From: Opitutaceae bacterium
GTDB lineage: Bacteria; Verrucomicrobiota; Verrucomicrobiia; Opitutales; Opitutaceae
Assembly (NCBI GenBank): GCA_035298965.1
Contig: DATGXO010000107.1
Span: 38,860 to 102,859, forward strand
Reading direction: 5' to 3'
Length of the DNA stretch: 64,000 nt
The notes beneath the pieces are model-generated. The model saw only the letters and a list, made by a program, of their open reading frames with translations, was not told the origin of the DNA and did no database searches. Every line of letters starts with the position of its first letter. Within the stretch, counting starts at the first letter, position 1. The position numbers and the translations under genes were made by a program. This document shows positions 2,045 to 27,572 of the stretch, piece after piece.

Positions 2045-2074
2045 GGCGAGAGGAGTGAGGCGAGAGGCTGGAGG
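2045..2074. repeat. Purine-rich leader motif copy (GGCGAGAGG ... GGCGAGAGGCTGGAGG)
   Basis: Near-copy of the 16-mer GGCGAGAGGCTAGAGG, in the spacer just upstream of the ATG at 2035. Confidence 0.75.
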
Positions 2075-2095
2075 ACGGAGGGCCGAGGGTGGTCC

Positions 2096-2117
2096 GCGCC
2101 GTTCTCGCGCGCGGCGC
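2096..2117. repeat. REP-like GC hairpin (GCGCCG-ttctcgcgcg-CGGCGC)
   Basis: Inverted repeat read directly. Related to the copies at 3141, 3287, 4330 and 53683. Confidence 0.6.
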
Positions 2118-2158
2118 CATGAAGGGCGAAACGCTTACGCGTTCCGCTACGGGAGCGT

Positions 2159-3088
2159 TCAGCTGCGGCGATAGAAGCGGCCGAGGAGGGCGCCGAGTTT
2201 GATCGCGCGGCGGCGGGCGCGCACGGTCGCGGCGGGGAAGAGCGGCAGCGGGCCGTCGGCATATTCCCAGAACCAGCGGTCGGGGCGGCTGGGCGGCTGG
2301 CCGCGGAGAGCCTCGAGCACGTAACGTTTCTTCCACGGCTTCGGCTTGTCGACGGCGTGGCTCATCATCGGGCGGCCGGCGCTGGGGAGGAAGTCCATGC
2401 CGTTGGGGCCGTAGATCGCGACCGGGTGCGGCGTGATCATGGCGGCGAGGTTCATCGTATCCTGATTGGCGCTCCAGAAACGATGCGTGCGGTCGAGGCT
2501 GCGCCAGCCCTTGAGGCTGCCGCTCTCGGGTTCGACGGCCTGCACGAGCTCGGCCCAATCGGAGAGGAACGAGCGGTGCTCGCGGCGCACGCCCTGGAAA
2601 CCGCCGTTGCAGAAACGGTGCAGCGTGTGCACGACTTCGCGGCCGCGTTCGCGGGCGAACTTCGCCCACGCGTGGCGGAGCGGATGGTGCGGGCCGACGT
2701 GGTAGTGGTTGTCCTCGCAGAGCGCGATGCCGTAGCCGGCCCACTCTTCGTAGTAGCTCCAGCGCGAGCAGACGACGATGTCGGGGTCGAAGTAGAAGAC
2801 GGCGTCGGCGCCGGGCTCGTGGGTGTCGAGGACTTCCTGCATCCACCACGGCTTGTAGTGCGTGAAGTGGATGTCGGTCGGGTGCGGGAACAGCACGATC
2901 TCGACGGAGCCGGCGGCGATGTGGCGTGTGCCGTCGGCGGCGGGGGCGACGTCGGCCCAGGTCGGGAGCGCGCCGCGGTAGGCGGTCCAGAGGCGGCCGG
3001 TGTAGCCGTTGCGCGCGAGCGAGTTGGCGAGGGCGGCGACGCCGTAGTGATAGTCGCCTTCGAAAAGGGTGGTGACGACGCTGGGCAT
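2159..3088 (-). CDS. GT8-like (glycogenin/LgtC-like GT-A) glycosyltransferase, paralog 1
   Basis: Start chosen at ATG 3088 (MPSVVTTLFEGDYHYG...); the ORF track extends to 3169 through the repeat-containing leader. GT8-style motifs are present: YFDPDIVV (DxD), CNGGFQGV, NQDTMNL, HAVDKPKPW. Confidence 0.6.
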   Translation of the reverse strand: MPSVVTTLFEGDYHYGVAALANSLARNGYTGRLWTAYRGALPTWADVAPAADGTRHIAAGSVEIVLFPHPTDIHFTHYKPWWMQEVLDTHEPGADAVFYFDPDIVVCSRWSYYEEWAGYGIALCEDNHYHVGPHHPLRHAWAKFARERGREVVHTLHRFCNGGFQGVRREHRSFLSDWAELVQAVEPESGSLKGWRSLDRTHRFWSANQDTMNLAAMITPHPVAIYGPNGMDFLPSAGRPMMSHAVDKPKPWKKRYVLEALRGQPPSRPDRWFWEYADGPLPLFPAATVRARRRAIKLGALLGRFYRRS

Positions 3089-3095
3089 GGAGGGA

Positions 3096-3132
3096 GGCGA
3101 GAGGCTAGAGGGAAGAGGCGAGAGAGCGGAGG
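3096..3132. repeat. Purine-rich leader motif: exact GGCGAGAGGCTAGAGG at 3096-3111 plus a degenerate second unit
   Basis: Read directly, immediately upstream of the ATG at 3088 on the opposite strand. Confidence 0.85.
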
Positions 3133-3140
3133 CGGATCGC

Positions 3141-3171
3141 GGAATCGCCGCTCTCGCGAGCGGCGCCACAG
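3141..3171. repeat. REP-like element GGAATCGCCGCTCTCGCGAGCGGCGCCACAG
   Basis: Stem GCCGC/GCGGC around a TCTCGCGA core. A near-identical copy lies at 3287-3317. Confidence 0.75.
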
Positions 3172-3286
3172 AGGGAGGCGAGAGGAGGACGGCGTGCTGT
3201 GGGGCGGGGGTTTATCCCGACTGGATTGGAAGAGTCGGGCGTAAAGCCCGACCGACTGGTGGATCGCGTGAAGCTCGATCTACAGG

Positions 3287-3317
3287 GGAATCGCTGCTCT
3301 CGCGAGCAACGCCACAG
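3287..3317. repeat. REP-like element GGAATCGCTGCTCTCGCGAGCAACGCCACAG (diverged copy)
   Basis: Aligns base-for-base with 3141-3171 apart from 3 substitutions. Confidence 0.75.
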
Positions 3318-3326
3318 CGGGCAGGG

Positions 3327-4259
3327 TCAGGCGCGGCAGTAGAAGCGGTTGAGGAACGACGCGGCGGCGAGATCGAGTTTCTTCCAACGCACGCGACCGG
3401 CGGAGAAGGCCGGGATCGGGCCGGCGGCATGCGCCCAGAAGAAGCGGTCGGCGGCGGCGAGCGGGATGCCGGAGAACGCGCGGCCGAGGTAGAAACGCAG
3501 CCATGGTTTCGGGCGGCCCATGGCGTGCGAGAGCTGCGTGCCGCCGGGGAAGAAATCCATGCCCGAGGGCCCGACTGTGCTCAGCCCGAGCGGCGAGACC
3601 ATAGTGGCCATGTTGAGAAAATCCTGGTCGGCGAACCTGAAGTACGGATACTGTTTCATCCGCTGCGAGGCGGTCTGAGGCGTGAAGCCGGCGGACTGGC
3701 CGGCCTCGATGAGCCGGTGCCAGAGCTCGACGAACGACGCGTCGCGGCGGTGCACGCCGACGAAGCCGCCGTTGTAGTAGGCGTTGCGCGTCTGCGCGGG
3801 CGGGAAGCCGGCGCTGCGGAGGAAACGCGCCCACGCCTGCCGCACGGGATGGTCGTTGGGCATGACGGGGTTCACGTCCTCGACGAGGGCGACGCCGCAG
3901 TCGGCCCAGTCCTCGAAGTAGAGCCACTCGCGTTTCACGACGACATCGGGGTCGAGGTAGAAGAGGCGCTCGGCGGCGGGCACGATCTCGCGCCAGAGGC
4001 GCTGGAAGAACGCCGGCTTGTGATTGGTGAGATGCCACTCGGTGTCGACGGCGACGCATTCGACGTGGAACCCGTCCGGGCCGTCCCAACGCGGGCGGCC
4101 CTCGGGGCTGCGCGCCGTGCACCATGGCGGCGGCGGGCCGCGGTGGCCGATGATGCACTTGCCGCGGAAACCGGCCGCGTGGAGCGAGTTGAACAGGACG
4201 GCGGCGCCGAGGTGGTAGTGGCCTTCGAGAAGGGTGAAGACGACGGAGCGATTGGGCAT
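3327..4259 (-). CDS. GT8-like glycosyltransferase, paralog 2
   Basis: 310-aa ORF, ATG at 4259. Colinear with 2159-3088: VVFTLLEGHYHLG, YLDPDVVV, YNGGFVGV, DQDFLNM, HAMGRPKPW. Confidence 0.6.
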   Translation of the reverse strand: MPNRSVVFTLLEGHYHLGAAVLFNSLHAAGFRGKCIIGHRGPPPPWCTARSPEGRPRWDGPDGFHVECVAVDTEWHLTNHKPAFFQRLWREIVPAAERLFYLDPDVVVKREWLYFEDWADCGVALVEDVNPVMPNDHPVRQAWARFLRSAGFPPAQTRNAYYNGGFVGVHRRDASFVELWHRLIEAGQSAGFTPQTASQRMKQYPYFRFADQDFLNMATMVSPLGLSTVGPSGMDFFPGGTQLSHAMGRPKPWLRFYLGRAFSGIPLAAADRFFWAHAAGPIPAFSAGRVRWKKLDLAAASFLNRFYCRA

Positions 4260-4274
4260 CGTTGTCGGAAGACG

Positions 4275-4320
4275 GAGGCTAGAGAACAGAGGCTAGAGGC
4301 GAGAGCTGAGAGGCTGGAGG
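4275..4320. repeat. Purine-rich leader motif, three degenerate units (GAGGCTAGAG / GAGGCTAGAGGCGAGAG / GAGAGGCTGGAGG)
   Basis: Read directly in the spacer upstream of the ATG at 4259. Confidence 0.8.
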
Positions 4321-4329
4321 GGCGAGGAC

Positions 4330-4359
4330 GATCGCCGCTCTCGGGAGCGGCGCCACTGG
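4330..4359. repeat. REP-like element GATCGCCGCTCTCGGGAGCGGCGCCACTGG
   Basis: Same core as 3141-3171. Confidence 0.7.
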
Positions 4360-4372
4360 ATTCGCGGTGCGA

Positions 4373-5296
4373 TCAGCCATTGGCGGCGGGCGCGGCGGAG
4401 AGGCGTTGTGTGAGGAGTTCGAGGATGCGGGCGTCGACGGCGGTGTCGAACTTGCGCGCGAAGAGCGCACCGCGGGCGGCAGCAGACGTCAGCACCGGAA
4501 GATCGGCGGCGCGGAAATTCTGCGGGCTGGCGAGGCCGCCCTGCCAGTTGATGCAGCGCAGGTGGTCGTTTTCCACGGGGCCGCAGGCGAGGTTGCGCAC
4601 GATGGTCTGGAAAACGCTCTCCTCGGGAAACGCCGTGCCGCGGAACCACTCGGCGATGCGCCAGCCTTGGCGCGAGACGGTCTGTTCGGCGGCGGTGCGC
4701 GAGAGCACGACCCAGTTGTCGCCACCGTACCATTTGAACCACGGCGTCTCGCGTGGGCGGCGGCGCGGCAGCGAGGGGATCGCGCTGGCGCCGCCGAAGA
4801 ACCGGCGCAGGCGCCGGCCGAGGCCGGGGAGGCGCAGCCACCACTCGAGCACGGGGCTGTCGAGGCGATCGCGCTCGAGGCGGCCGGCGGCGTCGCGCCA
4901 GTCGGAATCGGGGCCGAGCGGATCGAAGTGGCGGACGAAGCTGGTGTCGCCCGTGGCGGCGAGTCGCGTGGCGATCTCAGCGGGCGCGTGGAGCGGGAAG
5001 CATTGGCCGCTGAGGTTCACCCAATGCGTCCAAGGCTGCGGCTGGCGCAAGGCGAGTTCGAGGCCGACGAGTTGTGCCCGGATCAGGCTGAAACGGCCCC
5101 AGAGCACGGCGGTGGGCGGCTGGACGACGATGTTGGGCCGCGTAGCGGCGAGCGCGGACACGGCGCGGTGTTCGCCCGCCGGACGGCGGCGGTCGTAATG
5201 GACAACGTAGACGTTGTCGGGCGACCAGAGCGCATCGATCAGGCGCCCGAGTTGCGCGGGGTCCTTGTGGGCGAGGAGGTGGAAGGCTACGGCCAT
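4373..5296 (-). CDS. GT14 family (Core-2/I-branching-type) beta-glycosyltransferase
   Basis: 307 aa. MAVAFHLLAHKDPAQLGRLIDAL...VVHYDRR...LWGRFSLIRAQL...GDNWVVLSR...PEESVFQT matches the conserved layout of the Branch domain. Confidence 0.65.
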   Translation of the reverse strand: MAVAFHLLAHKDPAQLGRLIDALWSPDNVYVVHYDRRRPAGEHRAVSALAATRPNIVVQPPTAVLWGRFSLIRAQLVGLELALRQPQPWTHWVNLSGQCFPLHAPAEIATRLAATGDTSFVRHFDPLGPDSDWRDAAGRLERDRLDSPVLEWWLRLPGLGRRLRRFFGGASAIPSLPRRRPRETPWFKWYGGDNWVVLSRTAAEQTVSRQGWRIAEWFRGTAFPEESVFQTIVRNLACGPVENDHLRCINWQGGLASPQNFRAADLPVLTSAAARGALFARKFDTAVDARILELLTQRLSAAPAANG

Positions 5297-6483
5297 GCGA
5301 CGCTGAGGGGTGCGGCGGTCTCGGCGGCGGGCGCGGTGTGGCGCCTCAGCCAGTCGAAGAATCGCGCGCGGGTCTGCGGCAGCTCGAGGTGCTCGCGGGC
5401 GAAGGCGACCGCGGTCTCCGCGATTTTACGACGTTCGGTGCGTTCATCGTGCAGGCGCAGCAACGCGCGCTCCACGTCGGCACTGGTCGACGCGAAGTGC
5501 GCGATCCCGGCTGGGAGCCCGGCGAGGAAGTTCTCCGTCGCAGTGCCCGGGCAGGTGGGCGCGACGATCGGCAGGCCGGCGGCGAGATAATCGGCCAGCC
5601 GGCCGGGCACGGAGAAACGCCAGCGGCTCGTCGCCTCGTGCCGGACCGGCAGCACGCCTACGGAGGCGCTGGCCAACAATTGCGAGAATTCGGCGGCGGG
5701 CCGGCGGCCGAGTTCCCGCACATGGCGGCGCGCGGCGGGCGAGAGTTTGTGCGCCTCGGTCCCGATGTAGAGCAGCTCGGCGGCCGGGCGGCGGGCGGCG
5801 AACGCGAGCCAGCCGGGGAGGAACACCGTCTCGAAAAACGAATCGCGGCCGGCGTAGAGCGCACCGGTCGCGAGCGCGCGGAACGGCCCGAGGTGGCGAT
5901 CCGGCGGGAAGCCCGGGACGAAGCCGCAGGGCGGTTGCAACACGAGTTGCGGGGCGGAGACGTGCGGAGCGAAGACGGCGCTGAGCTGCTCGGAGACCGT
6001 GATCAGTGCCGTGGCGTCGCGCGCGAGCGCGAAGAGTTCCGGCAACGCGTCGGGGGTGACGGGGCCCTCGTCGAGCAGGTCCATCAACATGAGCACATAC
6101 CGCTCGACTCCGGCGTGGCGCAGGAGCACTCGAGCGCGGGCGGCGTGATCGTCGCTGTAGACGCAGACGAGCGCCGGGCCGGGGCTGCGTCGCCAGGCAT
6201 TGCGGACGCGGTGCAGCTGCGGCGAACTCGCCGCGAGCGCGGGCATCGCGATCTTCGGGAAGATGCGGCGGACGAAACGCGCGCCGCGGGCGAACGGCCA
6301 GGGCAGCTCGCTCGCGACATGGAGGCGGCGGAATTCCGCGGGCGGCGCGTGGCGGCCGCGCCGGAAAGTGAGGTGTAGCAGACGTCCAGCGCAGGGCTTG
6401 TAGAGGCGCCGGAGCATGACCGAGGTGCCGTCGGCTTCGCCGAGCGGCACGTGGTAGACGAGGAGATGGCGGGCGGAATTCAT
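5287..6483 (-). CDS. Hypothetical protein, possible GT-B-like glycosyltransferase
   Basis: 398-aa ORF in operon register, overlapping the next gene by 10 nt. The C-terminal segment GRLADYLAAGLPIVAPTCPG resembles GT-B donor-binding halves. No firm family call. Confidence 0.4.
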   Translation of the reverse strand: MNSARHLLVYHVPLGEADGTSVMLRRLYKPCAGRLLHLTFRRGRHAPPAEFRRLHVASELPWPFARGARFVRRIFPKIAMPALAASSPQLHRVRNAWRRSPGPALVCVYSDDHAARARVLLRHAGVERYVLMLMDLLDEGPVTPDALPELFALARDATALITVSEQLSAVFAPHVSAPQLVLQPPCGFVPGFPPDRHLGPFRALATGALYAGRDSFFETVFLPGWLAFAARRPAAELLYIGTEAHKLSPAARRHVRELGRRPAAEFSQLLASASVGVLPVRHEATSRWRFSVPGRLADYLAAGLPIVAPTCPGTATENFLAGLPAGIAHFASTSADVERALLRLHDERTERRKIAETAVAFAREHLELPQTRARFFDWLRRHTAPAAETAAPLSVAWP

Positions 6484-6492
6484 CGGCGCGGC

Positions 6493-7335
6493 TCAGAGCG
6501 GAAGCAGGGTTCGCGCCGCGCGGAGGGCGTAGCGGAGTGCGGTGCCGGAGCTGCCGGAGCGCGCGATGCGGGCGGCATCGAGGAGGCGGCGGCGGGCGGC
6601 GCGGCGGGCGTCGGCGGGCGAGCGACCGGGGAAATCGCGGGCGTTGGCGAGCAGGATCGTGGCGGTCTCGGCGATGAGCGCGGCGCTCTTGTTGGACATT
6701 GCCCCGGGGTGTTTGCGGTAGCGGAGCGTGAGGGCGCCGTTGTAGGCGAGGGCGACGCCGCGGCGGCAGCAGCGTAGCCAGTAGTCGAAGTCGTTGCAGA
6801 TCGGGTAGAGCGGATCGAAACCGCCCACGAGCGCGAAGGCGGCGCGATTGAACACGACCGCCGCGGGCTGGATCACGAGGCGGCCGTCGAACAGCGCACC
6901 GGGCAGGCCGCCGCGGAGATCGGCGGGGACTTCGCGACGGTTCACCTCGGCTCCGGTGTCCGAGTCGAACACCGAGCTGCCGCCAAAGACGAGCGCGGGC
7001 CCGCTGGCGGGCGCGGCGGCGAGACAGCGCGCGAGGTGGTCGGGCGTCCAGAGATCGTCGGCATCGAGGAGCGCGAGCCATTCACCGTGGGCGGCGGCGA
7101 GGCCGGTGTTGCGGGTGGCGGGCAGACCGCGGTTCACCTCGTGGCGTGTGTAGTGGACCGGCTGGGGCACGGAGGCGGCGAACGTGCGGACGATTTCCTC
7201 GGTGCGGTCGCGCGAGCCGTCTTCGGTGACGATCAATTCCCAGTCGGTGAACGTCTGCGCGCGGACGGACTCGAGGGTCTCGGCGAGGAAACGTTCGGCG
7301 CGATAGGCCGGCAGGCAGATGGAGATGAGAGGCAA
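6493..7335 (-). CDS. GT2 family glycosyltransferase
   Basis: ISICLPAYRAERFLAETLESVRAQTFTDWELIVTEDGSRDRT...LLDADD. Start set at the in-frame TTG 7335, just below the leader motif (approximate). The track ORF 6493-8520 is over-extended through the upstream gene. Confidence 0.75.
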   Translation of the reverse strand: MPLISICLPAYRAERFLAETLESVRAQTFTDWELIVTEDGSRDRTEEIVRTFAASVPQPVHYTRHEVNRGLPATRNTGLAAAHGEWLALLDADDLWTPDHLARCLAAAPASGPALVFGGSSVFDSDTGAEVNRREVPADLRGGLPGALFDGRLVIQPAAVVFNRAAFALVGGFDPLYPICNDFDYWLRCCRRGVALAYNGALTLRYRKHPGAMSNKSAALIAETATILLANARDFPGRSPADARRAARRRLLDAARIARSGSSGTALRYALRAARTLLPL

Positions 7336-7337
7336 GA

Positions 7338-7371
7338 GGCGAGAGAGGCTAGAGGGGCGAGGCGAGAGGGG
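7338..7371. repeat. Purine-rich leader motif (GGCGAGAGAGGCTAGAGGGGCGAGGCGAGAGGGG)
   Basis: Read directly. It fills the 50-nt spacer between the stop at 7386 and the start near 7335. Confidence 0.8.
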
Positions 7372-7385
7372 ACTGCTGAAGCGGC

Positions 7386-8402
7386 TCAGGCGGAGTCGTA
7401 GTGGCGGAAATGGCGGCGGTTCACGCGGGCGTAGAGGCGCTGGCCGGAGCGCGCGCCGGCGCGGAGCAGGTGCAGCAGACGGGGCGCGGCGGCGCGTTGG
7501 CGCGAGGGGAGGCGGACGGTGAGGAGTTCGTGCCAGACCCGGGCGGTGGCGGCGGGCGCGATCTCGGCGGCGCGTTCGCGGGCGCGGCGGCACATCGCGG
7601 AATAGAGCTTCGGGTCGTCGCGTAGGCGCTGGAGGGCGGCGAGCGCGGTGTCGGCGTCGTCGGCCTCGAGGTAGTCGAGCGCGTCGCGGTGGAGCGCGCG
7701 GTAGGCGGATTCGGGGCCGACGATGGCGGGGACGCCGGCGAGCCAAGCGTTGAGGAGCTTCGTCGGCGGTTTGTGATCGGCCCCTTGGTGCGCGGGATCG
7801 CGAAGGGCGATGACGACATCGATGCCGCTGTAGTCGTGCAGTTGCGAGAAATCGATGCCGGCTTCGACACTGGCATTGCCGGGCGTGACCCATTCGAGGC
7901 CGAGCGCGGCGAGACGACCCGGCCACTCGGGAGAACGAATCGCGGGCGGCAGGTGTTTGAACATGCCGAAATAGCCGACGCGGCGCACCGTGGTGCCGCG
8001 GCCGGGTTCGCGCGGGAGGAGCCCGGGTTGCGTCCAGTGGTTCACGTAGAACGCCCGGCGTCCGTCCGCCTGAAGCGGGTTCTGCACGATCTCGAAATCG
8101 GCGCGCCAGTGCGGGATGCGGTCGGCGCGGCAGACAACGGTCCAGAGGCGGGGCGACAGGAGCCGGCGATCGAGTTGCGCGTAGTCGTCGGCGTGGAGGA
8201 CGACCAGACCGGCGCGGGGGAGCTCGCGCGAGAGCACGGCGGGCAAGCCGGCCTGACGGAGGCGGGCCCACGTTTGCAGAATCCACGCGGGGCGACCGCC
8301 GTTGATCTGTCGGCGGAGAAACGCCTCGTCGGGCGTGAGGCCGGCCCAGGCTGGATCGGTGCCGGGGAGGAGGAAAACGGGCGGGCGGGAAACGGCGGTC
8401 AC
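7386..8402 (-). CDS. Hypothetical protein, polysaccharide-locus associated (possible GT-B-like)
   Basis: 338 aa. GTG start overlaps the upstream stop (GTGA). The segment KPPTKLLNAWLAGVPAIVGPES resembles a GT-B C-terminal motif. No confident family. Confidence 0.4.
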   Translation of the reverse strand: MTAVSRPPVFLLPGTDPAWAGLTPDEAFLRRQINGGRPAWILQTWARLRQAGLPAVLSRELPRAGLVVLHADDYAQLDRRLLSPRLWTVVCRADRIPHWRADFEIVQNPLQADGRRAFYVNHWTQPGLLPREPGRGTTVRRVGYFGMFKHLPPAIRSPEWPGRLAALGLEWVTPGNASVEAGIDFSQLHDYSGIDVVIALRDPAHQGADHKPPTKLLNAWLAGVPAIVGPESAYRALHRDALDYLEADDADTALAALQRLRDDPKLYSAMCRRARERAAEIAPAATARVWHELLTVRLPSRQRAAAPRLLHLLRAGARSGQRLYARVNRRHFRHYDSA

Positions 8403-9580
8403 GTGCCGGTGAGCTGGTGTTTGAGTCCGCGCGGGAGGCTGCGGCGGGCGGACTGGAGCATGCGGTCGGGCAGGGCGGCGGCGAGGCGCAGTGTCGCCGG
8501 GAAGCGGATGCCGCGCTCACGGGCGAGCTCGCGCACCTCGGTCCAGAGCGGGTCGGAGCTGCGGAGCATCTCGACGATGTAGCGCGAGCGCACGGCGGCG
8601 TAGGCCTTGAGGTCGAAGGCGTCGCGGAACGAGTCGAGCAGGCCGAGCACTTCGAAGCTGAGGAGCGTGCGCGCGCATTTCCAGCAGACGGAGCAGTTCC
8701 GCCGCTCGCTGCTGCGCACGCAGACGTGGAGATGGCGGCGGCTCGGAGCGAACCCGGCCACGCGCTCGATCTTCTGCACGCGGGAGTACTGGCAGCCGAC
8801 GGAGAGCACGCGGAGGCGTTCGGTGGAGAGTTGGGGCAGAAGGACCGGGTCCCAGGCGGCGAGATGGGAGCCGGGCGTACGCACGAAGCAGTCCTCGTAA
8901 CGGTAGCCGGAGGCGTAGAGGTAGGTGCCGATGAGTGACTGCACGACCAGCGCGGCGGCGGTGTTCCGGAACTGGTGCTCGATGTTGAACGTCTCGAGGC
9001 CGAGGAACTCGTCGAGATTCGAGTCCACCGCGATCACCGGCAGGCGGAGATCCTGCGCGCAGTCGATCACGCCTTCGTGGCGCCGGCGGAAGCCGGCCGC
9101 GCCGCGCGTGCCGAATGCGCCCACGTTGTTGAAAAGCAGATGCGTGAGCCGGTGGGCCGGCGGCACGGCGGGCCCGAGGTGGTCGCAGAGCACGCAGAAC
9201 GAATCGATGCCGCCGGAGAAGCCCACCGCGACGCCGCGGCTGTAGGGCGGCGGCGGGGCGTAGTCGACCGCCTGGGCGACGCGCACGCGGATCGGGCGGA
9301 AGCCCACGCCGGATTGCGCGACGATGGCCGGCACGGCGGTGTTGAGCGAAAACAACAGGCGGGCGGAGACGCGGCCGGCGGCGAACACGGAGTCGCCGTG
9401 GCGGAAGGCCAGCGACAGCGCGGCCATGACGAACGGATCGAGACACTCGGGGTCGAGATAGCGTGCCCATTCGGGCGCGACGGAGAACCAGACGGGGTGA
9501 GTCTGGCCCTGGCAGGTGATGTTGGTCGTGAGGGCGACGGAGTCGCCGCGATCAACGAGGGTAGGTTTGGCGATGTGCAT
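8399..9580 (-). CDS. PP-loop ATP pyrophosphatase superfamily protein (adenine nucleotide alpha-hydrolase-like) with C-terminal Cys cluster
   Basis: Start at ATG 9580 (MHIAKPTLV...). Canonical PP-loop VAVGFSGGIDSF. Cys cluster C-x14-CSVCWKC near the C-terminus, similar to QueC-type zinc sites. The track ORF to 10132 is over-extended. Confidence 0.5.
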   Translation of the reverse strand: MHIAKPTLVDRGDSVALTTNITCQGQTHPVWFSVAPEWARYLDPECLDPFVMAALSLAFRHGDSVFAAGRVSARLLFSLNTAVPAIVAQSGVGFRPIRVRVAQAVDYAPPPPYSRGVAVGFSGGIDSFCVLCDHLGPAVPPAHRLTHLLFNNVGAFGTRGAAGFRRRHEGVIDCAQDLRLPVIAVDSNLDEFLGLETFNIEHQFRNTAAALVVQSLIGTYLYASGYRYEDCFVRTPGSHLAAWDPVLLPQLSTERLRVLSVGCQYSRVQKIERVAGFAPSRRHLHVCVRSSERRNCSVCWKCARTLLSFEVLGLLDSFRDAFDLKAYAAVRSRYIVEMLRSSDPLWTEVRELARERGIRFPATLRLAAALPDRMLQSARRSLPRGLKHQLTGT

Positions 9581-9636
9581 GGCCGTGCGGGGTTGGCACG
9601 CGCGCAGTGGGACGAACGTGGGCGGGAGCCGGGGGT

Positions 9637-18167: not shown

Positions 18168-18176
18168 TGCGAGGGC

Positions 18177-19589: not shown

Positions 19590-20841
19590 GGGCGTGAGGG
19601 CGGCCGGTGATCGCGGCGAGGAGCGGGCCGTAGCAGCGCTCCGGCGAAAAACGGGAGAGCGCGAGGTCGCGGCCCTGTTTGGCGCGGGCGGCGCGGGCGG
19701 CGGGATTGCGGAGGAGCGCGACGATCTGGGCGGCGAAGTCGACGGGGGTGTCGGCGGGCGGGAGCGTTTCCGAGAGGAAGCCGAGGCCTTGGAGACCGGT
19801 CGAGGTGGTGACGACGGCCTTCCCGTGGGAGAGCCCTTCGAGGAGTTTGATCTTCACGCCGCCGCCGTGGTGGAGCGGGACGAGCACGAGCGCGGACGCT
19901 CCGTAATGGACATCCGGCGACTCGATGAAACCGAGGTTCTCGACGCTGGGATCGAGGCCGGTGAGGCCTTCGCCGACGCGGCCGCAGATGCGCAGGCGTG
20001 CGGCGGGGTGGTCGCGCAGCACGCGGGGCCAGACCTCGGCGAGCAGCCAGGCGAGGCCGGCCCGGTTGGAGGGGTTGTGGCTGCCGAGGTAGAGGCAGAG
20101 GTCGGGGTTCTCGGTGCCGGGCGCCTGCTCGGCGGTGACGGCCTTCGGCACGAGGATGATCCGTTCCGGCGGGACGAGCTCGGTGTAGGCGGCGTAGTCG
20201 TCGTCCGAGATGGCGACCACGCGGTCGGCGACGGACAACATGGCGGACTCGGTACGGGCGGTGAGGTAGTCGAGGCTGCCGGGGGCGAGCAGCGCGGCGG
20301 TCGAGCGAGCCTTCTGATGCCAGACGTTGTGGCTGAGCATGATCGTCGTGGCGCCGTTGGCGACGGTGCAGGCGCTGCCGAGCCACGGGTAGTTCACGAG
20401 GAGGGCGTTGGGCCGGAGGCGGCGCACGAGGCGGGCGACGAAGGCGAGCTCGGACTGGTCAAGCGGGCGGTACCAGCGCGGCACTCCGTTGGGGATGCCG
20501 GCGAAGGGCACGATCTCGTTGGGGGAGGCCGGCTCGGGTTGGAGGCGCGAGCCGAGGCGGCGGGCGGTGCGACCACCGAGGGGCAGGCGCTCGGGGAAGA
20601 AGTGCGTGCCCGCAACGTGGACACTGCGGCGGAAGTGCAGACGGCAGACGGAGGCGAGCTCGGCGGGTGTGCGCCAGCGCCAGGAGTTGGCGACTTCCGC
20701 GGGTTGCTCGAGCCAGGCGACGTGGCACCGCACGCCGTGCTCGGTGAGGAAGCCCATCATCTCGTGGAGCAAGGCGCTGGCGCCATCGTCCTGCGGGCGC
20801 GGGCTGTGGCGCGTGACGAAGAGGGCAAGTGGGGCTGCCAT
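19576..20841 (-). CDS. Glycosyltransferase GT-B (GT4-like)
   Basis: ATG 20841: MAAPLALFVTRHSPRPQDDGASALLHEMMGFL... C-terminus GGGVKIKLLEGLSHGKAVVTT is typical of GT4. The track ORF to 21108 is over-extended. Confidence 0.7.
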   Translation of the reverse strand: MAAPLALFVTRHSPRPQDDGASALLHEMMGFLTEHGVRCHVAWLEQPAEVANSWRWRTPAELASVCRLHFRRSVHVAGTHFFPERLPLGGRTARRLGSRLQPEPASPNEIVPFAGIPNGVPRWYRPLDQSELAFVARLVRRLRPNALLVNYPWLGSACTVANGATTIMLSHNVWHQKARSTAALLAPGSLDYLTARTESAMLSVADRVVAISDDDYAAYTELVPPERIILVPKAVTAEQAPGTENPDLCLYLGSHNPSNRAGLAWLLAEVWPRVLRDHPAARLRICGRVGEGLTGLDPSVENLGFIESPDVHYGASALVLVPLHHGGGVKIKLLEGLSHGKAVVTTSTGLQGLGFLSETLPPADTPVDFAAQIVALLRNPAARAARAKQGRDLALSRFSPERCYGPLLAAITGRPHAHAAR

Positions 20842-20863
20842 CGGAGCGGGAGCGCGGCGCGGG

Positions 20864-22111
20864 TCAGGCGGAGCTGATGGCGAAGGCGGGCTCGATGCGG
20901 CAGCCGCCGAACGAGCGGTCGCTCTCGTGGTCGTGCACGCTGGTGACGACCTCCCAGAGGGCGAGGGAGCCGATGCTGTCGTAGTAGTGGCGGCCGGAGC
21001 CGATGGCGGCGCTGATCTGGTAGGCGCCGGGGTGGAGCGGCAGGCGCGGGAGTTCGAGGCGGATGCGGCTGGTGCCGGCGGGCAGGGTGAAGGTGCGGCC
21101 GCCGCCATCCGAATCCAGGGTGAGGATGCGCTGGCCGTCGACGGTGCGGAAGCCCAGGCCGAGCATCATGTTCTCAAGGGTTTCGCGCGCCTCGACGACG
21201 AACTCGATCGCGAAGGGCTGGTTGAAGCGCAGGCCGCCGGGGGAGACGACGGCGACCTCCTTGAAGCGTGCGGTGCGGGCCTCGGCGCCGGGGCTGCGTT
21301 TGGCGGCGGTGAGGTCGAGTGTGAGCGCGGAGGCGCCGGAGCCTTGGGCGTAGTGCTCGATCGCGGTGTCGACATCCATCGGGCCGCTGGAGCGGCCGCC
21401 ATCGAGGAGGACGCAGCGTTTGCAGAGGCGGCGGATGGCCGTCATGTGATGGCTGACAAAGAGGACGGTGCGGCCGGAGCGCTCGGAGACATCGGCCATC
21501 TTGCCGAGGCATTTGCGCTGGAACTGCTGGTCGCCGACGGCGAGGACCTCGTCGACGATGAGGATGTCGGGCTCGAGGTGGGCGGCGACGGCGAAGGCGA
21601 GGCGGACGTACATGCCGCTCGAGTAGCGTTTGACCGGCGTGTCGAGGAAGCGCTCGACCTCGGAGAAGGCGACGATCTCGTCGAACTTCCGGGCGACTTC
21701 GGCGCGGGTCATGCCGAGGATGGCGCCTTTGAGGAAGATGTTGTCGCGGCCGGAGAGCTCGGGGTGGAAACCGGTGCCGACCTCGAGGAGGCTGCCGACG
21801 CGGCCGCGCAGGCGGATCTCGCCGGAGGTGGGCTCGGTGATGCGGGAGAGGACCTTGAGAAGGGTGCTTTTGCCGGCGCCGTTGCGGCCGATGATGCCGA
21901 GGGCTTCGCCGGGCTGGACATCGAAGGAGACGTCGCGGAGCGCCCAGAAGTCGCGTTTGTCCTCGCGAGGTGCGGCGGCGGGTTTGCCGCCGGCGAGCGA
22001 GCGGCACCAGCGGCCGAGACGTTCGACATCATCGCGGAGCGAGGTCATGCCGATGTGGCCGAGTCGGTACTTCTTGGAGACTCCGCGGATTTGGATGATG
22101 GGACGGGACAT
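20864..22111 (-). CDS. wzt: Polysaccharide ABC exporter ATP-binding protein with C-terminal glycan-binding-type domain (Wzt/TagH-like)
   Basis: Walker [10 protein letters not shown], signature YSSGM, Walker B ILIVDE. An extra roughly 160-aa C-terminal beta-rich domain follows, as in Wzt proteins that read a chain terminator. Confidence 0.85.
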
Positions 22112-22121
22112 GCGGGAAAGA

Positions 22122-22150
22122 GGCGAGAGGCTAGAGGGAAGAGGCGAGGG
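22122..22150. repeat. Purine-rich leader motif: exact GGCGAGAGGCTAGAGG at 22122-22137 plus GAAGAGGCGAGGGG
   Basis: Read directly in the 51-nt wzm-wzt spacer. Confidence 0.85.
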
Positions 22151-22162
22151 GACGGAGCGGGC

Positions 22163-23029
22163 TCAGACGGTGTCGACGAAGGTGCGGGCGGCGCGCTGGT
22201 AGGCGAAGATGCCGACGAGGAAGACGAGGATGGAGAGCGCGACGGATTGGGCGTACTGCGTCGCGTCGACGTGGCCGACGCCGAGGAAGAGGCGACGGGT
22301 GGCCTCGACGATCGCGGTCATCGGATTGAGTTGGGAAACCCAGCGCCACTTCTCCGGCACGCGGGAGAGCGGATAGATGATCGGCGTGGCATACATCCAG
22401 AGCTGGATGATGAACGCCTGGATGTGGTGCAGGTCGCGGTATTTTGCGGTGAGCGTCGAGAGGATGAGTCCGATGCCGAGGGCGAGCACGGCCATGTGCA
22501 GGACGATGGCTGGGTACGCGAGCCAGACCAGCGACGGGCCGGCGACGGCGGGGTTGTGCGCGAACCAGTGTTCGCGGACGAAGAACGTGAAGAACGTGAG
22601 CAGCTGGATGCTCAGGGCGATCAGACACGAGACGGCGAGCGCGAACGGCGGGATCAGGCGCGGGAAATAGACCTTCGAAAAGAGCGCGGCGGAGCCGGCG
22701 AGGGAGTTGCCCGTCGCGCCGAGCACGGCGGCGAAGTACGTCCAGCCGAGCATGCCGCAGAGGTAGAAGAGCATCGGCGGGACGCCGTCAGTCGGGACGC
22801 CGATGACCTTGTTGAAGATCAGGGTGAACGTGAAGGTCGTGATGAGCGGGTTCAGGAAGAACCACGCGGGCCCGAGGATCGTCTGCTTGTACTTCGCGGT
22901 GAAGTCGCGGAGCACGAGTTGGCGCAGGAGATCGCGGTATTCGATCAGGCCGCGCCAGTCGAAGACGAACCAGGCGGTCGTGGGCTTGATGACGATCTCG
23001 GTTTCCGAGGACGGTGGCAGTGTGCTCAT
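22163..23029 (-). CDS. wzm: ABC-2 type polysaccharide exporter permease (Wzm-like)
   Basis: ATG 23029: MSTLPPSSETEIVIKPTTAWF...LVLRDFTAKYKQTILGPAWFFLNPL, the ABC-2 signature region, and 6 hydrophobic spans. Confidence 0.85.
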   Translation of the reverse strand: MSTLPPSSETEIVIKPTTAWFVFDWRGLIEYRDLLRQLVLRDFTAKYKQTILGPAWFFLNPLITTFTFTLIFNKVIGVPTDGVPPMLFYLCGMLGWTYFAAVLGATGNSLAGSAALFSKVYFPRLIPPFALAVSCLIALSIQLLTFFTFFVREHWFAHNPAVAGPSLVWLAYPAIVLHMAVLALGIGLILSTLTAKYRDLHHIQAFIIQLWMYATPIIYPLSRVPEKWRWVSQLNPMTAIVEATRRLFLGVGHVDATQYAQSVALSILVFLVGIFAYQRAARTFVDTV

Positions 23030-24615
23030 GCGGAAGGTAGGCGTGGATGGAGGCGGGCGGCGGCGGTGGGCAGCTCGTCGGTATGGGTCGACGTGAAGGC
23101 GGATTCCAGCGATTCGCGTGCCGGGGCGGCACGCACGATCGCGAGGGCGAGAAGGGCGGCGACGGAGGCGAGGCCGAGCACGGCGGGATTGCGTAGGACG
23201 AAATCGATCCAGCCGTGCGCGAGCACGAACGCGGCGCCGGTGGCGAGCAGCGCGGCGGCGGGCACGAAACTCCACGCGCGGCGGAGCGCGGCGAGCCAGA
23301 CCAGCCACGGGGCGGCGAAGAGCGCGGTGCCGACGAAGCCGAACTCGGCGCTGAACTCGACCCAGTCGCCGTCGGCGTGGACGTGCACGGGGCGATTCCA
23401 GTTCGGTTGAAAACGGCGCACGGCTGCGGCGAAGGTGGGCACGCGTTGCTGGTACTCAGGGAAGAGGATCACGTAGCTGCCGGCGCCGTGGCCGAGCCAT
23501 GGGCGGTCGAGCGTCATCTGCCAGGCGATGTCGTGGAGGATGCGCCGATACGAGCCGCCGACGAGAAGATCGCCCGGCTCGCGCGCGAGTTCGGCGACGC
23601 GGTGCAGCGTCGCGCGGACCGGCGGCAGCAGCGCGAGGCCGGCGGCGAAGACGAGCGCCGCGGCTGCGCCGACCGTGAGGAGGCGCGGGCGGGAGAACCA
23701 GCGGTCACGCAACGGCCAGAGCACGAAGGCGGCGGCGGATGCTGCGAGTACCGCGGCGCCGGCGAGGCCGGCGCGGGAGCGGGTCGTGACGGTGCCGAGG
23801 AAGACGAGCGCGACGAGCAGACCACACCAGAGATTGCGTCGGCGCAGGAGCGGCCACGGGCGCAGCGGCGTGGGCGCGAACCAGGCGGCGAGCGCGAGCG
23901 CGAGCAGCACGACCTGATAGGCGGCCTGCTGGTTCTTGTACGGGAACTGCGGCGCGCCGAGGTGGAACGCGGCGTCGGACACCAGCCAGAGCACGGCGTG
24001 CGAACCGGAGAGGTTGTGGGCGAACGCGAACGCGGAGAATGCCGCGGCGTGGAGCGCGAGCAGGCCGAGCACGGCGGAGAGGAAGGGTACGCGGCGGCGC
24101 AGCGCGGCGAAGGCGGCGAGCGGCAGACCGGCGGCGGCGGCGACGAGCAGTTGGCGCCAGGCGTTGGCAAAATCGAGGAAGTCGCCCGGCAGGCGGTCGA
24201 AGGGGCCGGCGATACCGGTCGGCAGCCAGGCGCGATGCGCGAGCGGCACGATCGCGCCGACGGGACGGCGATCCGGAATCAGGAGACGGTCGGGGTTGAT
24301 CGCCTGACAGAGCAGGAGTCCGGCGAAGGCGAGCGCGCAGAACACGACGAAGGGCGAGAAGAGCGGCGCGGCATCCGCGCGCACGGTGCCCGCGCGATCG
24401 CCGTCGCCGGTGGGCCACGCCACGAGCCGGCGACGGGCGGCGAGCCGGGCGAGCACGAACGCGATGCCGCCCACCGCGGCGGCGAGCGTCTGGCCGCCGA
24501 CGGTCGACGCGCCCAGCCACCATGCCGGCGCGATCCACGCCACGGCCAGCGCGCAGAGCACGACGCGCTCCGCGGAGGAGAGCGTGTCGGACGGCGCGTT
24601 GGTGGCGGCGGTCAT
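23026..24615 (-). CDS. Wzy_C-domain membrane protein (O-antigen ligase / O-oligosaccharyltransferase-like)
   Basis: 529 aa, at least 10 hydrophobic spans, TTRSRAGLAG loop motif, GHGAGSY segment. ATGA overlap with wzm. Confidence 0.65.
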   Translation of the reverse strand: MTAATNAPSDTLSSAERVVLCALAVAWIAPAWWLGASTVGGQTLAAAVGGIAFVLARLAARRRLVAWPTGDGDRAGTVRADAAPLFSPFVVFCALAFAGLLLCQAINPDRLLIPDRRPVGAIVPLAHRAWLPTGIAGPFDRLPGDFLDFANAWRQLLVAAAAGLPLAAFAALRRRVPFLSAVLGLLALHAAAFSAFAFAHNLSGSHAVLWLVSDAAFHLGAPQFPYKNQQAAYQVVLLALALAAWFAPTPLRPWPLLRRRNLWCGLLVALVFLGTVTTRSRAGLAGAAVLAASAAAFVLWPLRDRWFSRPRLLTVGAAAALVFAAGLALLPPVRATLHRVAELAREPGDLLVGGSYRRILHDIAWQMTLDRPWLGHGAGSYVILFPEYQQRVPTFAAAVRRFQPNWNRPVHVHADGDWVEFSAEFGFVGTALFAAPWLVWLAALRRAWSFVPAAALLATGAAFVLAHGWIDFVLRNPAVLGLASVAALLALAIVRAAPARESLESAFTSTHTDELPTAAARLHPRLPSA

Positions 24616-24659
24616 GGAGGTTGGTTGTTGCGGGCCAAGTCGGCGACCTGGCCTACAGG

Positions 24660-25940
24660 TCAGAACGTGCAGGAGACGAAGCCGGCGATGACGTGGCGGT
24701 CGTAGTCGAGCAGGTTGTTGTTCGAGCGGGAATTCGTGTAGGTGTAGTCGGCGCCGGCGGCCCAGGTGCGGTTGATCGAGTAGGAGAGATTCAGGCCGGC
24801 GCGGGTGCGCTCATCGTTGCGGCTGGTACTCGGGAAGTCGGCCCATTCCTCGGCGAGGCTGAGCGAGGCGCGGGTGCGTTGTCCGATGCGTTGGGTGACG
24901 CCGAGGCGGAGGGACGAGCTGACGGTCGAAAGGTTGTCGGCGCTGAGGCCCTGCTGGCGGCTGGCGTTGACCGATACGACGGTGCGCTCGCGGGCGTGCC
25001 AGGAGAGGGAGAGATTGCCGACGAGGGTGGCGCGACCGTGGTCGTTGAGGCCGACGGCCTCGCCCTGTTCGTAGCCGATGGAGAACGAGCTTTCGAGCTT
25101 CGGGAAGCGGGTCGGAGGGAGGAACGGTCCGGTGAGGCGGAGGCCGAAGGTCATGCTGCTGTCGTCCTTGTTGCGGTCGAGGGTCTCGTCCTGACCGCGT
25201 TTGAGCCAGCGGTAGCCGACATCGGCAGAGGCGCGGAGGCCGCTGATGAACTTGTAGAAGAGGCCGCTGCTGAGGGAGTGCGACTGTTGGTCGATGGAGC
25301 CGGCGGCGCCGTTGGAGTTGCTCACCGTATCCGTATAGCGGTAGTCGGCGCCGAGGCCGAAGCCGCCGAGGAAGTCGTTGTAATCGAAACCGGCGCCGGC
25401 GTTCCACTGGGTGCGGTCGGTGAAGACGTCGCGGGAGGTCTCGGTGTAGGCGAGGTTGGTGCGGAGATCGACGCGCGGGCCGGCGCGGTAGGTGCCGGAG
25501 AAACGGCCGCCCCAAGTCGTCGCGCGGACGCGGGCGCCGACGGTCTCGTCGACATCGGTCGTGTCGGAATAGTTGGCGGAGAACACGCCCTCCTGGCGCG
25601 CGCCCTCGGGGGTGGGCAGGTCGACGCGGAGGGAGGCGTGGTAGCCTTCGTTATCGAGGTTGGTGAAGTCGGCGTAGCGGTTGATGGAGACGCCGGCGGA
25701 GGCATCGATCGTGCCCAGGCCGGCGGCGCGGCGGTAGGCGAAGGTGGGCGCGAGGGTGTAGATCGTGTCGTCGAGTTCGCTGGAGTTGCCGAGGAGGTTG
25801 GTGTCGTAGGAAATGCGGCCGATCGTGGTGAGCGTGAGGGAGCCGCGGGCGAACTCCGCGAGGGCGTGGGCGGTGGCGGGGAGGACGAGGGTCGCGAGCA
25901 GCGCGGCCGGGAGCAGGGCGGTTTTTGGGGCGGTATTCAT
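24660..25940 (-). CDS. Outer-membrane beta-barrel protein, polysaccharide/PEP-CTERM-locus type
   Basis: Signal peptide (LLATLVLPATAHA), alternating-residue strands rich in Y/G/S/T/N, and a C-terminal aromatic residue (…GFVSCTF). Confidence 0.6.
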   Translation of the reverse strand: MNTAPKTALLPAALLATLVLPATAHALAEFARGSLTLTTIGRISYDTNLLGNSSELDDTIYTLAPTFAYRRAAGLGTIDASAGVSINRYADFTNLDNEGYHASLRVDLPTPEGARQEGVFSANYSDTTDVDETVGARVRATTWGGRFSGTYRAGPRVDLRTNLAYTETSRDVFTDRTQWNAGAGFDYNDFLGGFGLGADYRYTDTVSNSNGAAGSIDQQSHSLSSGLFYKFISGLRASADVGYRWLKRGQDETLDRNKDDSSMTFGLRLTGPFLPPTRFPKLESSFSIGYEQGEAVGLNDHGRATLVGNLSLSWHARERTVVSVNASRQQGLSADNLSTVSSSLRLGVTQRIGQRTRASLSLAEEWADFPSTSRNDERTRAGLNLSYSINRTWAAGADYTYTNSRSNNNLLDYDRHVIAGFVSCTF

Positions 25941-27538
25941 GGTGTAACGCTTTCGAAACGGACGAGCTGGGGAAGGGCCGCGCGCAGGGCGGCGACGGCG
26001 GAGTCGTAATCGTAGACGGCGCCGGAGAGGGTGATGCCGAGCACGCGTTGGCCGAGGTTGCGGTTACCGGCGAGGACGGAGGCGAGGCGTTCGTCGGCGG
26101 CGACCTGGCGGTAGTCGAGATGTTCGCCGCTGACGGAGGGGCGTTCCTCGACGAGGCCGTGGAAGACGTAGAAGCGCTGGCCGGCGCGCTCGAAGATGTA
26201 TGTGCGGAACGGGATCGTGAGCGTGCCGACGGTGAGGGGCAGCACGTCGCGGTTTTCGACGAGCTCGAGGCCGGAGGCGGGGAAGCAGACGGTCGGGTAA
26301 TGCGAGCCGGCGAGAAACTTGGAGACGCGGCCCGGATCCCAGCGCAGGAAGAACGCCTGCCAGCGGATGCCGTCGGCATCGGTCCACGAGCCGCGGGCAC
26401 CGTCGTTGTGCTTGAGGAGCTTGACGGTGCGGTCGTCGAACGGCGTGGACTTGTAGTCGGCGGCGGCGGTGGGCCAGGCGATGTCCCAGCGCAACGGCGC
26501 GGGCAGGCGGCTCTCATGGTAGCCGTACCAGGCGCGCGTGGTGACCTCGCCGGTGAGCAGCCCGACGAGCAGGACGACGAAGGGCGTGATTGCGACGCGC
26601 GGGGTGGCGAGCAACGACGTGCCCGGACCGCCGGCGAGGGCGCGCGGACGGTTGCCGCGGGCGACGAGGGCTGCGAGCGCCCACAGCCCGGCGATGCAGC
26701 CGATCATGACGAAGTTGCCCATCGGATCGTGCCAGCGGTGCAGGGCCTCGGTGCCGTCGCGGCCGGCGACGTAGGTGAGGGTGACGGTGCGGGCGGTGTT
26801 GAGGAGGAAGGCGACGACGAAGCTCGAGAGGACGAGCACGATCCGGCGGACGAAGCGGAGGCGGTAGAATTCGCCGAGGAAGAGCGACATCATGAACGCA
26901 GTCTGGAGCGAGCGGATACCGCTGCACGCCTCCTCGACATCGACGAGCGACTGGCCGATCGCGATGGTGTTGCCTTGCGCGAGCGCGGGGATGCCGCAGA
27001 GGGAGAGGCCTTCGGCGCTGATCTGGGTGTTGAGCTGCATGAGGCCCTGCGTGAAGGCCTCCTCGGCCCAGACCGGCCAGGGCAGCGCGGTGAGCGTGAA
27101 GAACACCGGGAAGGCGAAGTGCCAGGTCCAGCGCCAGCCGCCCCAGGCGGTGAGCACGGCGAAGGTGGAGCCGAGCGCGGCGACGGCCATGAGCCAGTTG
27201 ATGCGCACCCAGTCGGGGTTCGCCTCGTGGATGACGCGCAGCGGCACGAGGGCGAGCGCGACGAGCGTGAGGACGAGGGCGGGGAGCCAGTTCGCGGCGC
27301 GGGCGAGCGGCGCGGCGGCATCGCGGAGGCGTTCGAAGACGAGATAGCCGGCGAGTGCCGGGATGGCCCAGCCGTACGAATACAGCGGGTTGACCCGCCA
27401 CTCGAGGCTCTGTTGCGACCAGACGGCCAGCCAGAGCGCGCCCAGGCCGAGCGCGACGGCGACGAGATCTCCACGGAAGGCCAGCGGGCGACTGGTCGAA
27501 CTGGCCGTGGCGGGCGCGGACGAGGCGGCGGTGGGCAT
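25937..27538 (-). CDS. Exosortase fused to a C-terminal EpsI-family domain
   Basis: ATG 27538. Multi-pass N-terminal half carries the exosortase catalytic motifs EEACSGIRS and LLNTARTVTL. A soluble C-terminal domain of roughly 200 aa has EpsI layout. Confidence 0.8.
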   Translation of the reverse strand: MPTAASSAPATASSTSRPLAFRGDLVAVALGLGALWLAVWSQQSLEWRVNPLYSYGWAIPALAGYLVFERLRDAAAPLARAANWLPALVLTLVALALVPLRVIHEANPDWVRINWLMAVAALGSTFAVLTAWGGWRWTWHFAFPVFFTLTALPWPVWAEEAFTQGLMQLNTQISAEGLSLCGIPALAQGNTIAIGQSLVDVEEACSGIRSLQTAFMMSLFLGEFYRLRFVRRIVLVLSSFVVAFLLNTARTVTLTYVAGRDGTEALHRWHDPMGNFVMIGCIAGLWALAALVARGNRPRALAGGPGTSLLATPRVAITPFVVLLVGLLTGEVTTRAWYGYHESRLPAPLRWDIAWPTAAADYKSTPFDDRTVKLLKHNDGARGSWTDADGIRWQAFFLRWDPGRVSKFLAGSHYPTVCFPASGLELVENRDVLPLTVGTLTIPFRTYIFERAGQRFYVFHGLVEERPSVSGEHLDYRQVAADERLASVLAGNRNLGQRVLGITLSGAVYDYDSAVAALRAALPQLVRFESVTP

Positions 27539-27542
27539 GGGA

Positions 27543-27572
27543 GGCGAGAGGCTAGAGGCGAGAGGTGAGAGG
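27543..27572. repeat. Purine-rich leader motif: exact GGCGAGAGGCTAGAGG at 27543-27558 plus CGAGAGGTGAGAGG
   Basis: Read directly in the 44-nt spacer between the wzc-like stop and the exosortase start. Confidence 0.85.

Follow-up and report, generated by a model that had tools for sequence, protein, structure and literature searches.

What is the short repeated element that stands before start codons in an exopolysaccharide (EPS) operon of an Opitutaceae bacterium, and what might it do there? The DNA analyzed here, called the window throughout, is a stretch of 64,000 nucleotides (positions 38,860 to 102,859 of contig DATGXO010000107.1, GenBank assembly GCA_035298965.1; positions below are counted from its first letter). 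An initial annotation of the window had reported a 16-nt purine-rich motif in six spacers of a minus-strand operon, each copy lying just upstream of a start codon. We find that the element is an imperfect heptanucleotide tandem array, of which the 16-mer is a piece. The reading we favor, with a probability of about 0.5, is that these arrays are slippage-prone heptamer repeats kept G-poor as unstructured ribosome landing sites, independent of Shine-Dalgarno (SD) pairing, for uncoupled cistrons. To our knowledge, how bacteria that ignore SD sequences find their start codons is largely open outside Bacteroidia, and we know of no function for bacterial heptanucleotide repeats.

The 16-mer was recovered by pattern search at the sites reported for it, in exact form at 3096-3111, 22122-22137 and 27543-27558 and as near copies at the other three sites. 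A search of the 64-kb window with the pattern GGCGAGAGGCTAGAGG, allowing up to three mismatches, gave 21 matches against 1.46 expected, a number reached by none of 100 shuffles. All but one of these matches (20 of 21) were on the plus strand and confined to the six spacers, the remaining one being unrelated, and successive matches overlapped with an offset of exactly 7 nt. Tandem Repeats Finder (TRF) assigned period 7 to all six sites (3.7-6.6 copies), and lag-7 autocorrelation of the window spacers gave z = 5.6. The tandem, imperfect unit reads (GGCNAGA)n on the plus strand and (CCUCUNG)n in the minus-strand mRNA, where a CCUC core is invariant and the remaining three bases of each unit vary. 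Three AGG triplets spaced by 7 nt occur in the window only at the six sites and only on the plus strand. The arrays are 30-45 nt long, all are intergenic, and their composition in the mRNA sense is C 0.55 and G 0.11. What had been taken for a specific 16-nt motif is instead a 7-nt tandem repeat, the unit of which differs among close relatives at the same spacers.

The placement just 5' of start codons was confirmed, the arrays ending 0-15 nt before six starts, all on the minus strand. The first array (2040-2081), composed of the six units CCTCCGT, CCTCCAG, CCTCTCG, CCTCACT, CCTCTCG and CCTCCTC, ends 4 nt 5' of the ATG at 2035. The second (3089-3134), which includes the exact 16-mer at 3096-3111, ends 2 nt 5' of the ATG at 3088, and the third (4275-4320, about 6.6 units) ends 15 nt 5' of the ATG at 4259. 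The fourth (7336-7372) starts 13 nt past the upstream stop codon and meets, with a gap of 0 nt, the TTG at 7335 of a GT2 glycosyltransferase gene. The fifth (22117-22151; five units, with the exact 16-mer at 22122-22137) starts 11 nt past the Wzm stop codon and ends 5 nt 5' of the Wzt ATG at 22111. The sixth (27539-27572; five units, with the exact 16-mer at 27543-27558) starts 10 nt past the Wzc stop codon and adjoins the ATG at 27538 of the exosortase gene EpsH, with a gap of 0-2 nt. Note that at 7333-7350 the repeat pattern runs past the TTG into the first GT2 codons (TTG CCT CTC ATC TCC), and the N-terminal residues of this GT2 protein are encoded by repeat-like sequence.

The genes concerned form a minus-strand exosortase/EPS operon of about 30 kb that encodes Wza, Wzc, EpsH, a beta-barrel protein, a Wzy_C protein, Wzm/Wzt and many glycosyltransferases, and the arrays presumably lie inside one polycistronic mRNA. 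EpsH homologues place the window in the Opitutaceae of the Verrucomicrobiota: identity is 48-52% to the proteins of Opitutus terrae, Nibricoccus and Horticoccus, and 74-97% to those of closer relatives. The G+C content of the window is 68%, and genes on either strand have a C-rich sense strand, C exceeding G at third codon positions (C3 > G3). Some Verrucomicrobia, including IMCC26134, are SD-scarce and have an intact CCUCC tail (PMC10783764). In the window, none of the 35 starts has an SD-like 4-mer (GGAG, GAGG or AGGA) between -20 and -3, and in five related loci only 2 of 74 starts have one. The description of the leaders in the initial annotation as pyrimidine-rich, resembling the anti-SD sequence and devoid of an SD site stands.

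The array leaders are also predicted to fold weakly. Mean predicted minimum free energy from -70 to +50 was -20.3 kcal/mol for array starts, -33.2 for other operon starts and -41.2 for internal windows, and the unpaired probability from -25 to +15 was 0.67, 0.50 and 0.43, respectively (p = 0.0017 and 2e-6). Three short spacers gave predicted values of -1.6 to -5.1 kcal/mol, weaker than those of their own shuffles. The link that we draw is that in C-rich, SD-less mRNAs a leader without G is unable to pair with itself or with the coding region, which is the basis for reading the arrays as unstructured landing sites.

The same composition would also suit Rho-utilisation (rut) sites, in which Rho would load onto untranslated stretches, rich in C and poor in G, between cistrons and so cause polarity. 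The arrays are unstructured by prediction and the whole operon mRNA is C-rich, as such sites would require. However, Rho needs about 60-80 nt of RNA and the arrays are only 30-45 nt long, proximity to a start codon is not expected of a rut site, and the arrays of relatives precede genes of ordinary operons (atp, fli, trp and metH). We consider this explanation very improbable. We give no more credence to internal promoters or RNase processing sites that would split the operon into sub-transcripts, although the arrays do sit at gene boundaries of a 30-kb operon and the initial annotation had listed these roles among its candidates. No sigma-70-like -35/-10 pair was found in the array spacers, a weak test insofar as that consensus may not be the one used by Verrucomicrobia, and the spacers hold no intrinsic terminator, nor the arrays any AT-rich hexamer. 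Three of the six array spacers are only 44-51 nt long. No Rfam family was found in the window at the gathering threshold, and a search of 1900-4500 at E <= 1 returned only one chance match to an sRNA. Among the roles proposed initially, an SD-independent translation leader fits best, given the lack of SD-like 4-mers at all 35 starts, the weak folding and the 28:1 orientation bias described below; that the arrays actually promote initiation is the part that we infer rather than observe.

That orientation bias comes from a survey of Opitutaceae-like DNA in which TRF was run on 467 kb, comprising the window, the loci of its relatives and 50 metagenome loci found via a hairpin that accompanies the arrays (see below). 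The surveyed loci were picked via the repeat or the hairpin, not via their relation to genes. Genes in the relatives were called by a home-made local coding-frame test (GC1 > GC2 with GC3 excess, that is, G+C at the three codon positions). Callers based on the greedy longest open reading frame (ORF) or on GC3-weighted ORFs were dropped, as they chose wrong strands in high-GC DNA, and a filter requiring frame closure upstream of the array proved too strict, frames remaining open for long stretches at 68% G+C. Among periods that are not multiples of three, 7 and 14 were prominent. There were 58 period-7 arrays with strong C/G strand skew, 9 of which were called inside genes. At junctions, a start codon within 30 nt downstream was found for 28 arrays on the C-rich strand versus one on the G-rich strand (binomial p = 1e-7), and when the window was left out the numbers were 22 and 1. 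Of the 28 starts, 25 were ATG, and the median distance from array to start was about 7 nt. Solitary G-rich arrays behind stop codons accounted for only 4 of the 58, and only three Opitutaceae arrays were paired, most of the 58 being solitary. The rarity of solitary G-rich arms indicates that C-rich, start-proximal arrays are preferentially retained. Several unit families were seen, some of them A-rich (TCCGCAA, AACTCTC and CAATCGN), and the existence of these A-rich families indicates that the property held in common is G-poverty rather than pyrimidine content.

The arrays also occur in front of genes of many kinds. Scanning of GTDB genome contigs for the exact 16-mer gave at least 120 loci (L001-L120; the genome of the window itself is not among the matches listed), including ten other Verrucomicrobia arrays with the order stop codon, C-rich array, ATG. 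The downstream genes in these cases were atpH-like, fliQ, flhA, trpE, metH, a GH4 glycosidase gene and rmlA. A restriction of the element to polysaccharide loci, which the initial annotation had put forward for checking, is ruled out by this diversity. In locus L047, from a Verrucomicrobia metagenome-assembled genome (MAG), CCTCTAG and CCTCTCG units at 790-826 are seemingly read in frame near the C-terminus of a product that ends ...FNRTITLKDTWAK, a case resembling an array inside a coding region.

To see what is conserved we compared the orthologous operons of three relatives with EpsH proteins 75-81% identical to that of the window (L121, L123 and L124), of a 62% relative (L126) and of O. 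terrae (L125). In L121, L123 and L124, C-rich period-7 arrays are present in the spacers before EpsH, Wzy_C and Wzt, with different units (for example, CACTCTN, CGTTCTT, GCCTTCC and CACCGNC in orthologous spacers). Lag-7 autocorrelation of the spacers gave z = 5.4 (L121), 5.0 (L123) and 2.9 (L124), and no lag-7 periodicity was found in the spacers of L126 or L125. The array sequence is not conserved; its form (period 7, C-rich, position) is. A conserved sequence motif is ruled out by the differing units at orthologous spacers. The 28:1 orientation, the start-proximal position, the persistence of periodicity while the units change and the scarcity of G-rich arms together point to selection on a property of the mRNA leader.

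In strains 93-97% identical to the window, the arrays are kept beside their start codons with no change in copy number, and hairpin segments are lost or replaced. Strain contigs (contigs, not reads) cross 22115-22148, 27541-27572 and 2040-2074 without insertions or deletions; the array of spacer 3 differs in run X10. These comparisons bear on the idea that the arrays are phase-variable simple sequence repeats (SSRs), or form non-B DNA such as a triplex or a template-strand G-quadruplex, and so switch expression. Phase variation is classically associated with tandem repeats next to surface-polysaccharide genes, and the plus strand of the arrays, with GG runs every 7 nt, has two-tetrad G-quadruplex potential (compare PMC4692102). 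On the other side, imperfect units disfavor slippage, and constant copy number rules out phase variation at the level of the strain contigs. The G runs of the arrays are no longer than GG, and any G-quadruplex would be weak. The near-homopurine/homopyrimidine tracts proposed initially as triplex formers proved to be broken every 7 nt: no array contains 14 or more consecutive purines or pyrimidines, and we reject as unlikely the formation of a triplex (H-DNA), which takes an uninterrupted homopurine/homopyrimidine mirror repeat of about 15 bp or more. Taken as a whole, an expression switch of either kind is scarcely credible.

If the arrays are landing sites, they might work as follows. In this Opitutaceae clade the G-poor, C/U-rich strand of the intercistronic arrays is the one present in the mRNA, ending a few bases before the start codon. 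Where SD pairing is not used and mRNAs are C-rich, a leader of little else than C and U would pair neither with itself nor with the coding region. The 30S subunit could then use this leader, probably via ribosomal protein S1, as a single-stranded site on which to land or stand by, so that translation would be able to begin anew on cistrons that gaps set apart from their neighbors and that lack translational coupling. Slippage by 7 nt, or replacement, would generate the arrays and drive their turnover, and selection would act on the property (G-poor, unstructured and adjacent to the start) and not on the sequence. A stronger version of this proposal, in which the array is a modular ribosome-recruitment device that replaces the SD sequence, seems rather unlikely to us: every unit would recruit a single OB-fold (S1 domain or cold-shock protein), the translation rate of uncoupled cistrons would be set by array length and 7-nt slippage would tune it.

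The operons of sister species offer a clean natural experiment, given that they have the same gaps, period and orientation with different sequence, and one could ask of them whether a G-poor, unfolded, 7-nt periodic property drives translation of uncoupled cistrons. Even if the arrays were merely tolerated junk, the 28:1 bias would still gauge selection against G-rich leaders in SD-less, C-rich transcriptomes. For annotation, the arrays mark true start codons in high-GC genomes, where starts are difficult to call.

The main rival holds that the arrays are passive or selfish repeats, either slippage products or the surviving single arms of heptamer-armed hairpin elements, with no positive role. 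Their adjacency to starts would follow from short spacers and from purging of copies that put the G-rich strand into mRNA. Evidence for this comes from other phyla. Among the matches listed in the GTDB scan, the exact 16-mer lies in heptamer arrays of Nitrospira, Planctomycetota, a Burkholderiales MAG, cyanobacteria, Bacteroidota and others, and in these phyla the purine strand is usually the coding one, directly after a stop codon (47 of 100 arrays, again among the matches listed). Paired arrays of other phyla form hairpins between genes. About 55 close pairs in L001-L120, from many phyla, begin without exception with the purine arm, followed by the loop and then the pyrimidine arm (among the matches listed). 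This purine-first polarity matches the orientation rule for the G-rich heptamers of Xanthomonas and Nostoc (PMC4692102). Between co-directional genes, arms in this order leave the pyrimidine arm beside the start of the downstream gene. In the source-like sample X1, sequencing depth over 3031-3204 is raised 5-9 fold, which is how a dispersed repeat would look. Units differ among close relatives, and one ortholog lacks an array. Moreover, heptanucleotides are the commonest class of long SSRs and have been ascribed to polymerase slippage (Mrazek 2007, in the account given by PMC4679880 and PMC4692102).

Set against the passive explanation, the six window arrays all lack an inverted partner, and no array of opposite polarity was found across the window. 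Most Opitutaceae arrays are solitary, and the asymmetry between 4 G-rich arrays behind stops and at least 28 C-rich, start-proximal ones needs selection. Four species retain the periodicity at corresponding spacers, and copy number is unchanged in the 93-97% identical strains. Among ORFs of 176 loci, inspected by eye without a Pfam scan, none that lies between arrays separated by 250-900 nt looked like a small four-helix-bundle gene (PF05635), which is a weak test. On balance we think passive repeats possible, though less probable than landing sites. In five Pirellulaceae (Planctomycetota) loci of the scan (L041, L044, L061, L065 and L115, two of which share one genome), the 16-mer is immediately followed by a conserved stretch (…CTGCTCCCCGACTTCGACAACAAGCTCAAGAGCGCCG), and the array there may belong to a conserved gene start or a repeated gene family.

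Several points weigh against the landing-site reading itself. A search for RNA sequencing runs that contain this DNA gave no match. Identical units are found across many phyla, for the most part oppositely oriented or paired as hairpins, which argues for an origin unrelated to translation. The L121 ortholog has no clear array before EpsH. SD-less initiation does not require an array, as 29 of the 35 window starts have none, and the distance from array to start codon varies from 0 to 27 nt. The C > G bias of the sense strand combined with purifying selection against G-rich leaders could yield the same orientation bias, and the gene calls behind that bias in the relatives come from the coding-frame test described above, with no curated annotation.

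A further alternative shares the single-stranded leader with the landing-site reading and assigns it another reader. The arrays could be a platform for a specific RNA-binding protein, with one OB-fold (of a cold-shock protein or the S1 domains) per 7-nt unit, which would bind cooperatively and regulate translation or stability of the downstream cistron. The strict 7-nt period agrees with the 6-7 nt that CspB covers on heptamers rich in pyrimidines (Sachs 2012; Morgan 2007; both cited in PMC4679880), the constant CCUC core with three variable bases per unit would suit such a protein, and the arrays are single-stranded by prediction. However, units vary widely between and within relatives (GCCTCTN, TCCGCAA, AACTCTC, CACCGNC and CGTTCTT), which argues against sequence-specific reading, and the spacing to the start codon is not fixed. 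A platform of this kind is unlikely, and a landing site chosen for its lack of structure remains the reading that we prefer.

The initial annotation did not recognize the motif as a described element, yet the class to which it belongs is already in the literature (PMC4679880 and PMC4692102). The heptamer arrays of the window are a new example of the known bacterial heptanucleotide-repeat class; our literature searches found no published description of such arrays in Opitutaceae. The closest published parallel is provided by the TAACTGA repeats of marine Beggiatoaceae, which lie just upstream of starts in place of SD sequences (MacGregor 2015, PMC4679880). Those repeats, like the arrays described here, are tandem 7-nt units in 2-6 copies, mostly intergenic and a few nucleotides before starts, where they occupy the SD position in front of genes of unrelated function, and both are scattered over distant phyla. 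S1, Csp (cold-shock) proteins or CsrA have been proposed as readers of the TAACTGA repeats, with no proven function (PMC4679880). The two differ in that one unit dominates in Beggiatoaceae, whereas here CCUCUNG and other C-rich units vary by spacer and species, and the host here is a high-GC, SD-scarce Opitutaceae bacterium.

A second parallel is given by the G-rich heptamers GGGAATC of Xanthomonas and GGGGAYT of Nostoc, which are found 0-50 bp upstream of ORFs with the G-rich strand non-coding (Rehm 2015, PMC4692102). These too are intergenic heptamer SSRs of large genomes and have the same orientation rule upstream of ORFs. They recur at the same gene junctions in related species with extensive variation in length and sequence, and some form inverted pairs. 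In contrast to the arrays of the window, they have GGG or GGGG runs and were investigated as G-quadruplex formers, whereas only GG runs are present here, and their hosts use SD sites. Long SSRs (LSSRs) of heptanucleotides and the short tandemly repeated repetitive (STRR) sequences of cyanobacteria (Mrazek 2007 and Mazel 1990, both as cited in PMC4679880 and PMC4692102) share imperfect period-7 structure, intergenic excess and sporadic phylogenetic distribution with the present arrays. That class is defined by form only, and strict sense orientation and start proximity are not general to it. Features of the class seen here are at least three head-to-tail 7-nt copies, a preference for intergenic positions and variation at the same junction among relatives. 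Finally, the leaders of SD-independent genes in Bacteroidia (PMC10783764 and PMC10798248) likewise lack SD pairing and are G-poor and weakly folded, but they are A-rich and not tandemly repeated, whereas those of the window are C/U-rich 7-nt repeats.

The arrays are accompanied by hairpins of another kind. Repetitive extragenic palindromic (REP) elements, known from REP/RAYT systems, have a GTAG head. The companion hairpins are short, imperfect, dispersed palindromes with a conserved GTAG-like (GTAG or GTGG) head and many extragenic copies, the presence of which varies among strains, and in these respects they are REP-like. They differ from REP elements in their GNRA-like loops, and they are separate from the heptamer arrays. 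Wherever a spacer is long, the array occupies its start-codon end and the REP-like hairpins its stop-codon end.

The first hairpin type, UGGCGCCGCUC-GCGA-GAGCGGCGAU, has a GTGG head and a GNRA-like loop and is present in four window copies in three spacers, all on the minus strand. The reference copy is at 3146-3168 in spacer 2, which contains a second copy (3292-3314). Another copy is at 4333-4355 in spacer 3, and a degenerate copy of UGGCGCCGCUC-GCGA-GAGCGGCG at 2097-2119 lies on the stop-codon side of the first array. This hairpin is dispersed: it was found in 50 metagenome loci, and its depth is 9-12 times baseline in the source-like sample. Between the two hairpins of spacer 2 lies a short extra C-rich array remnant (3170-3191, minus strand), within a segment of about 160 nt that is missing from related strains. 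Related strains lack 2079-2123 and about 3112-3289, which shows that hairpin copies are gained and lost.

A second type with a GTAG head, GTAGCGGAACGC-GUAA-GCGUUUCGCC (also given as GTAGCGGAACGCGTAAGCGTTTCGCC), lies at 2124-2152 on the minus strand and has a depth of about 12 times baseline in the source-like sample. The two longer spacers that were said to lack the motif, 24616-24659 and 29791-29868, indeed hold no array. The first of these, before the Wzy_C gene, is filled by a third REP type, GTAGGCCAGGTCGCCGACTTGGCC (24633-24656, minus strand), again with a GTAG head and with copies in locus L151. Copies of the second and third types were seen in metagenome loci L152, L170 and L151. In a 93% identical strain (run X10) the spacer 24617-24659 is swapped for 75 other letters, and the operon spacers turn over much faster than the genes.

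Base composition also sets the operon apart from its surroundings. The sense strand is strongly C-rich (C 0.43, G 0.28). The C3 of the EPS operon genes (minus strand, 1-31000) is 0.60-0.75 versus 0.46-0.51 for the neighboring carbohydrate-active enzyme (CAZyme) genes at 32000-64000, and the high C3 of the operon could reflect high expression or a different operon history.

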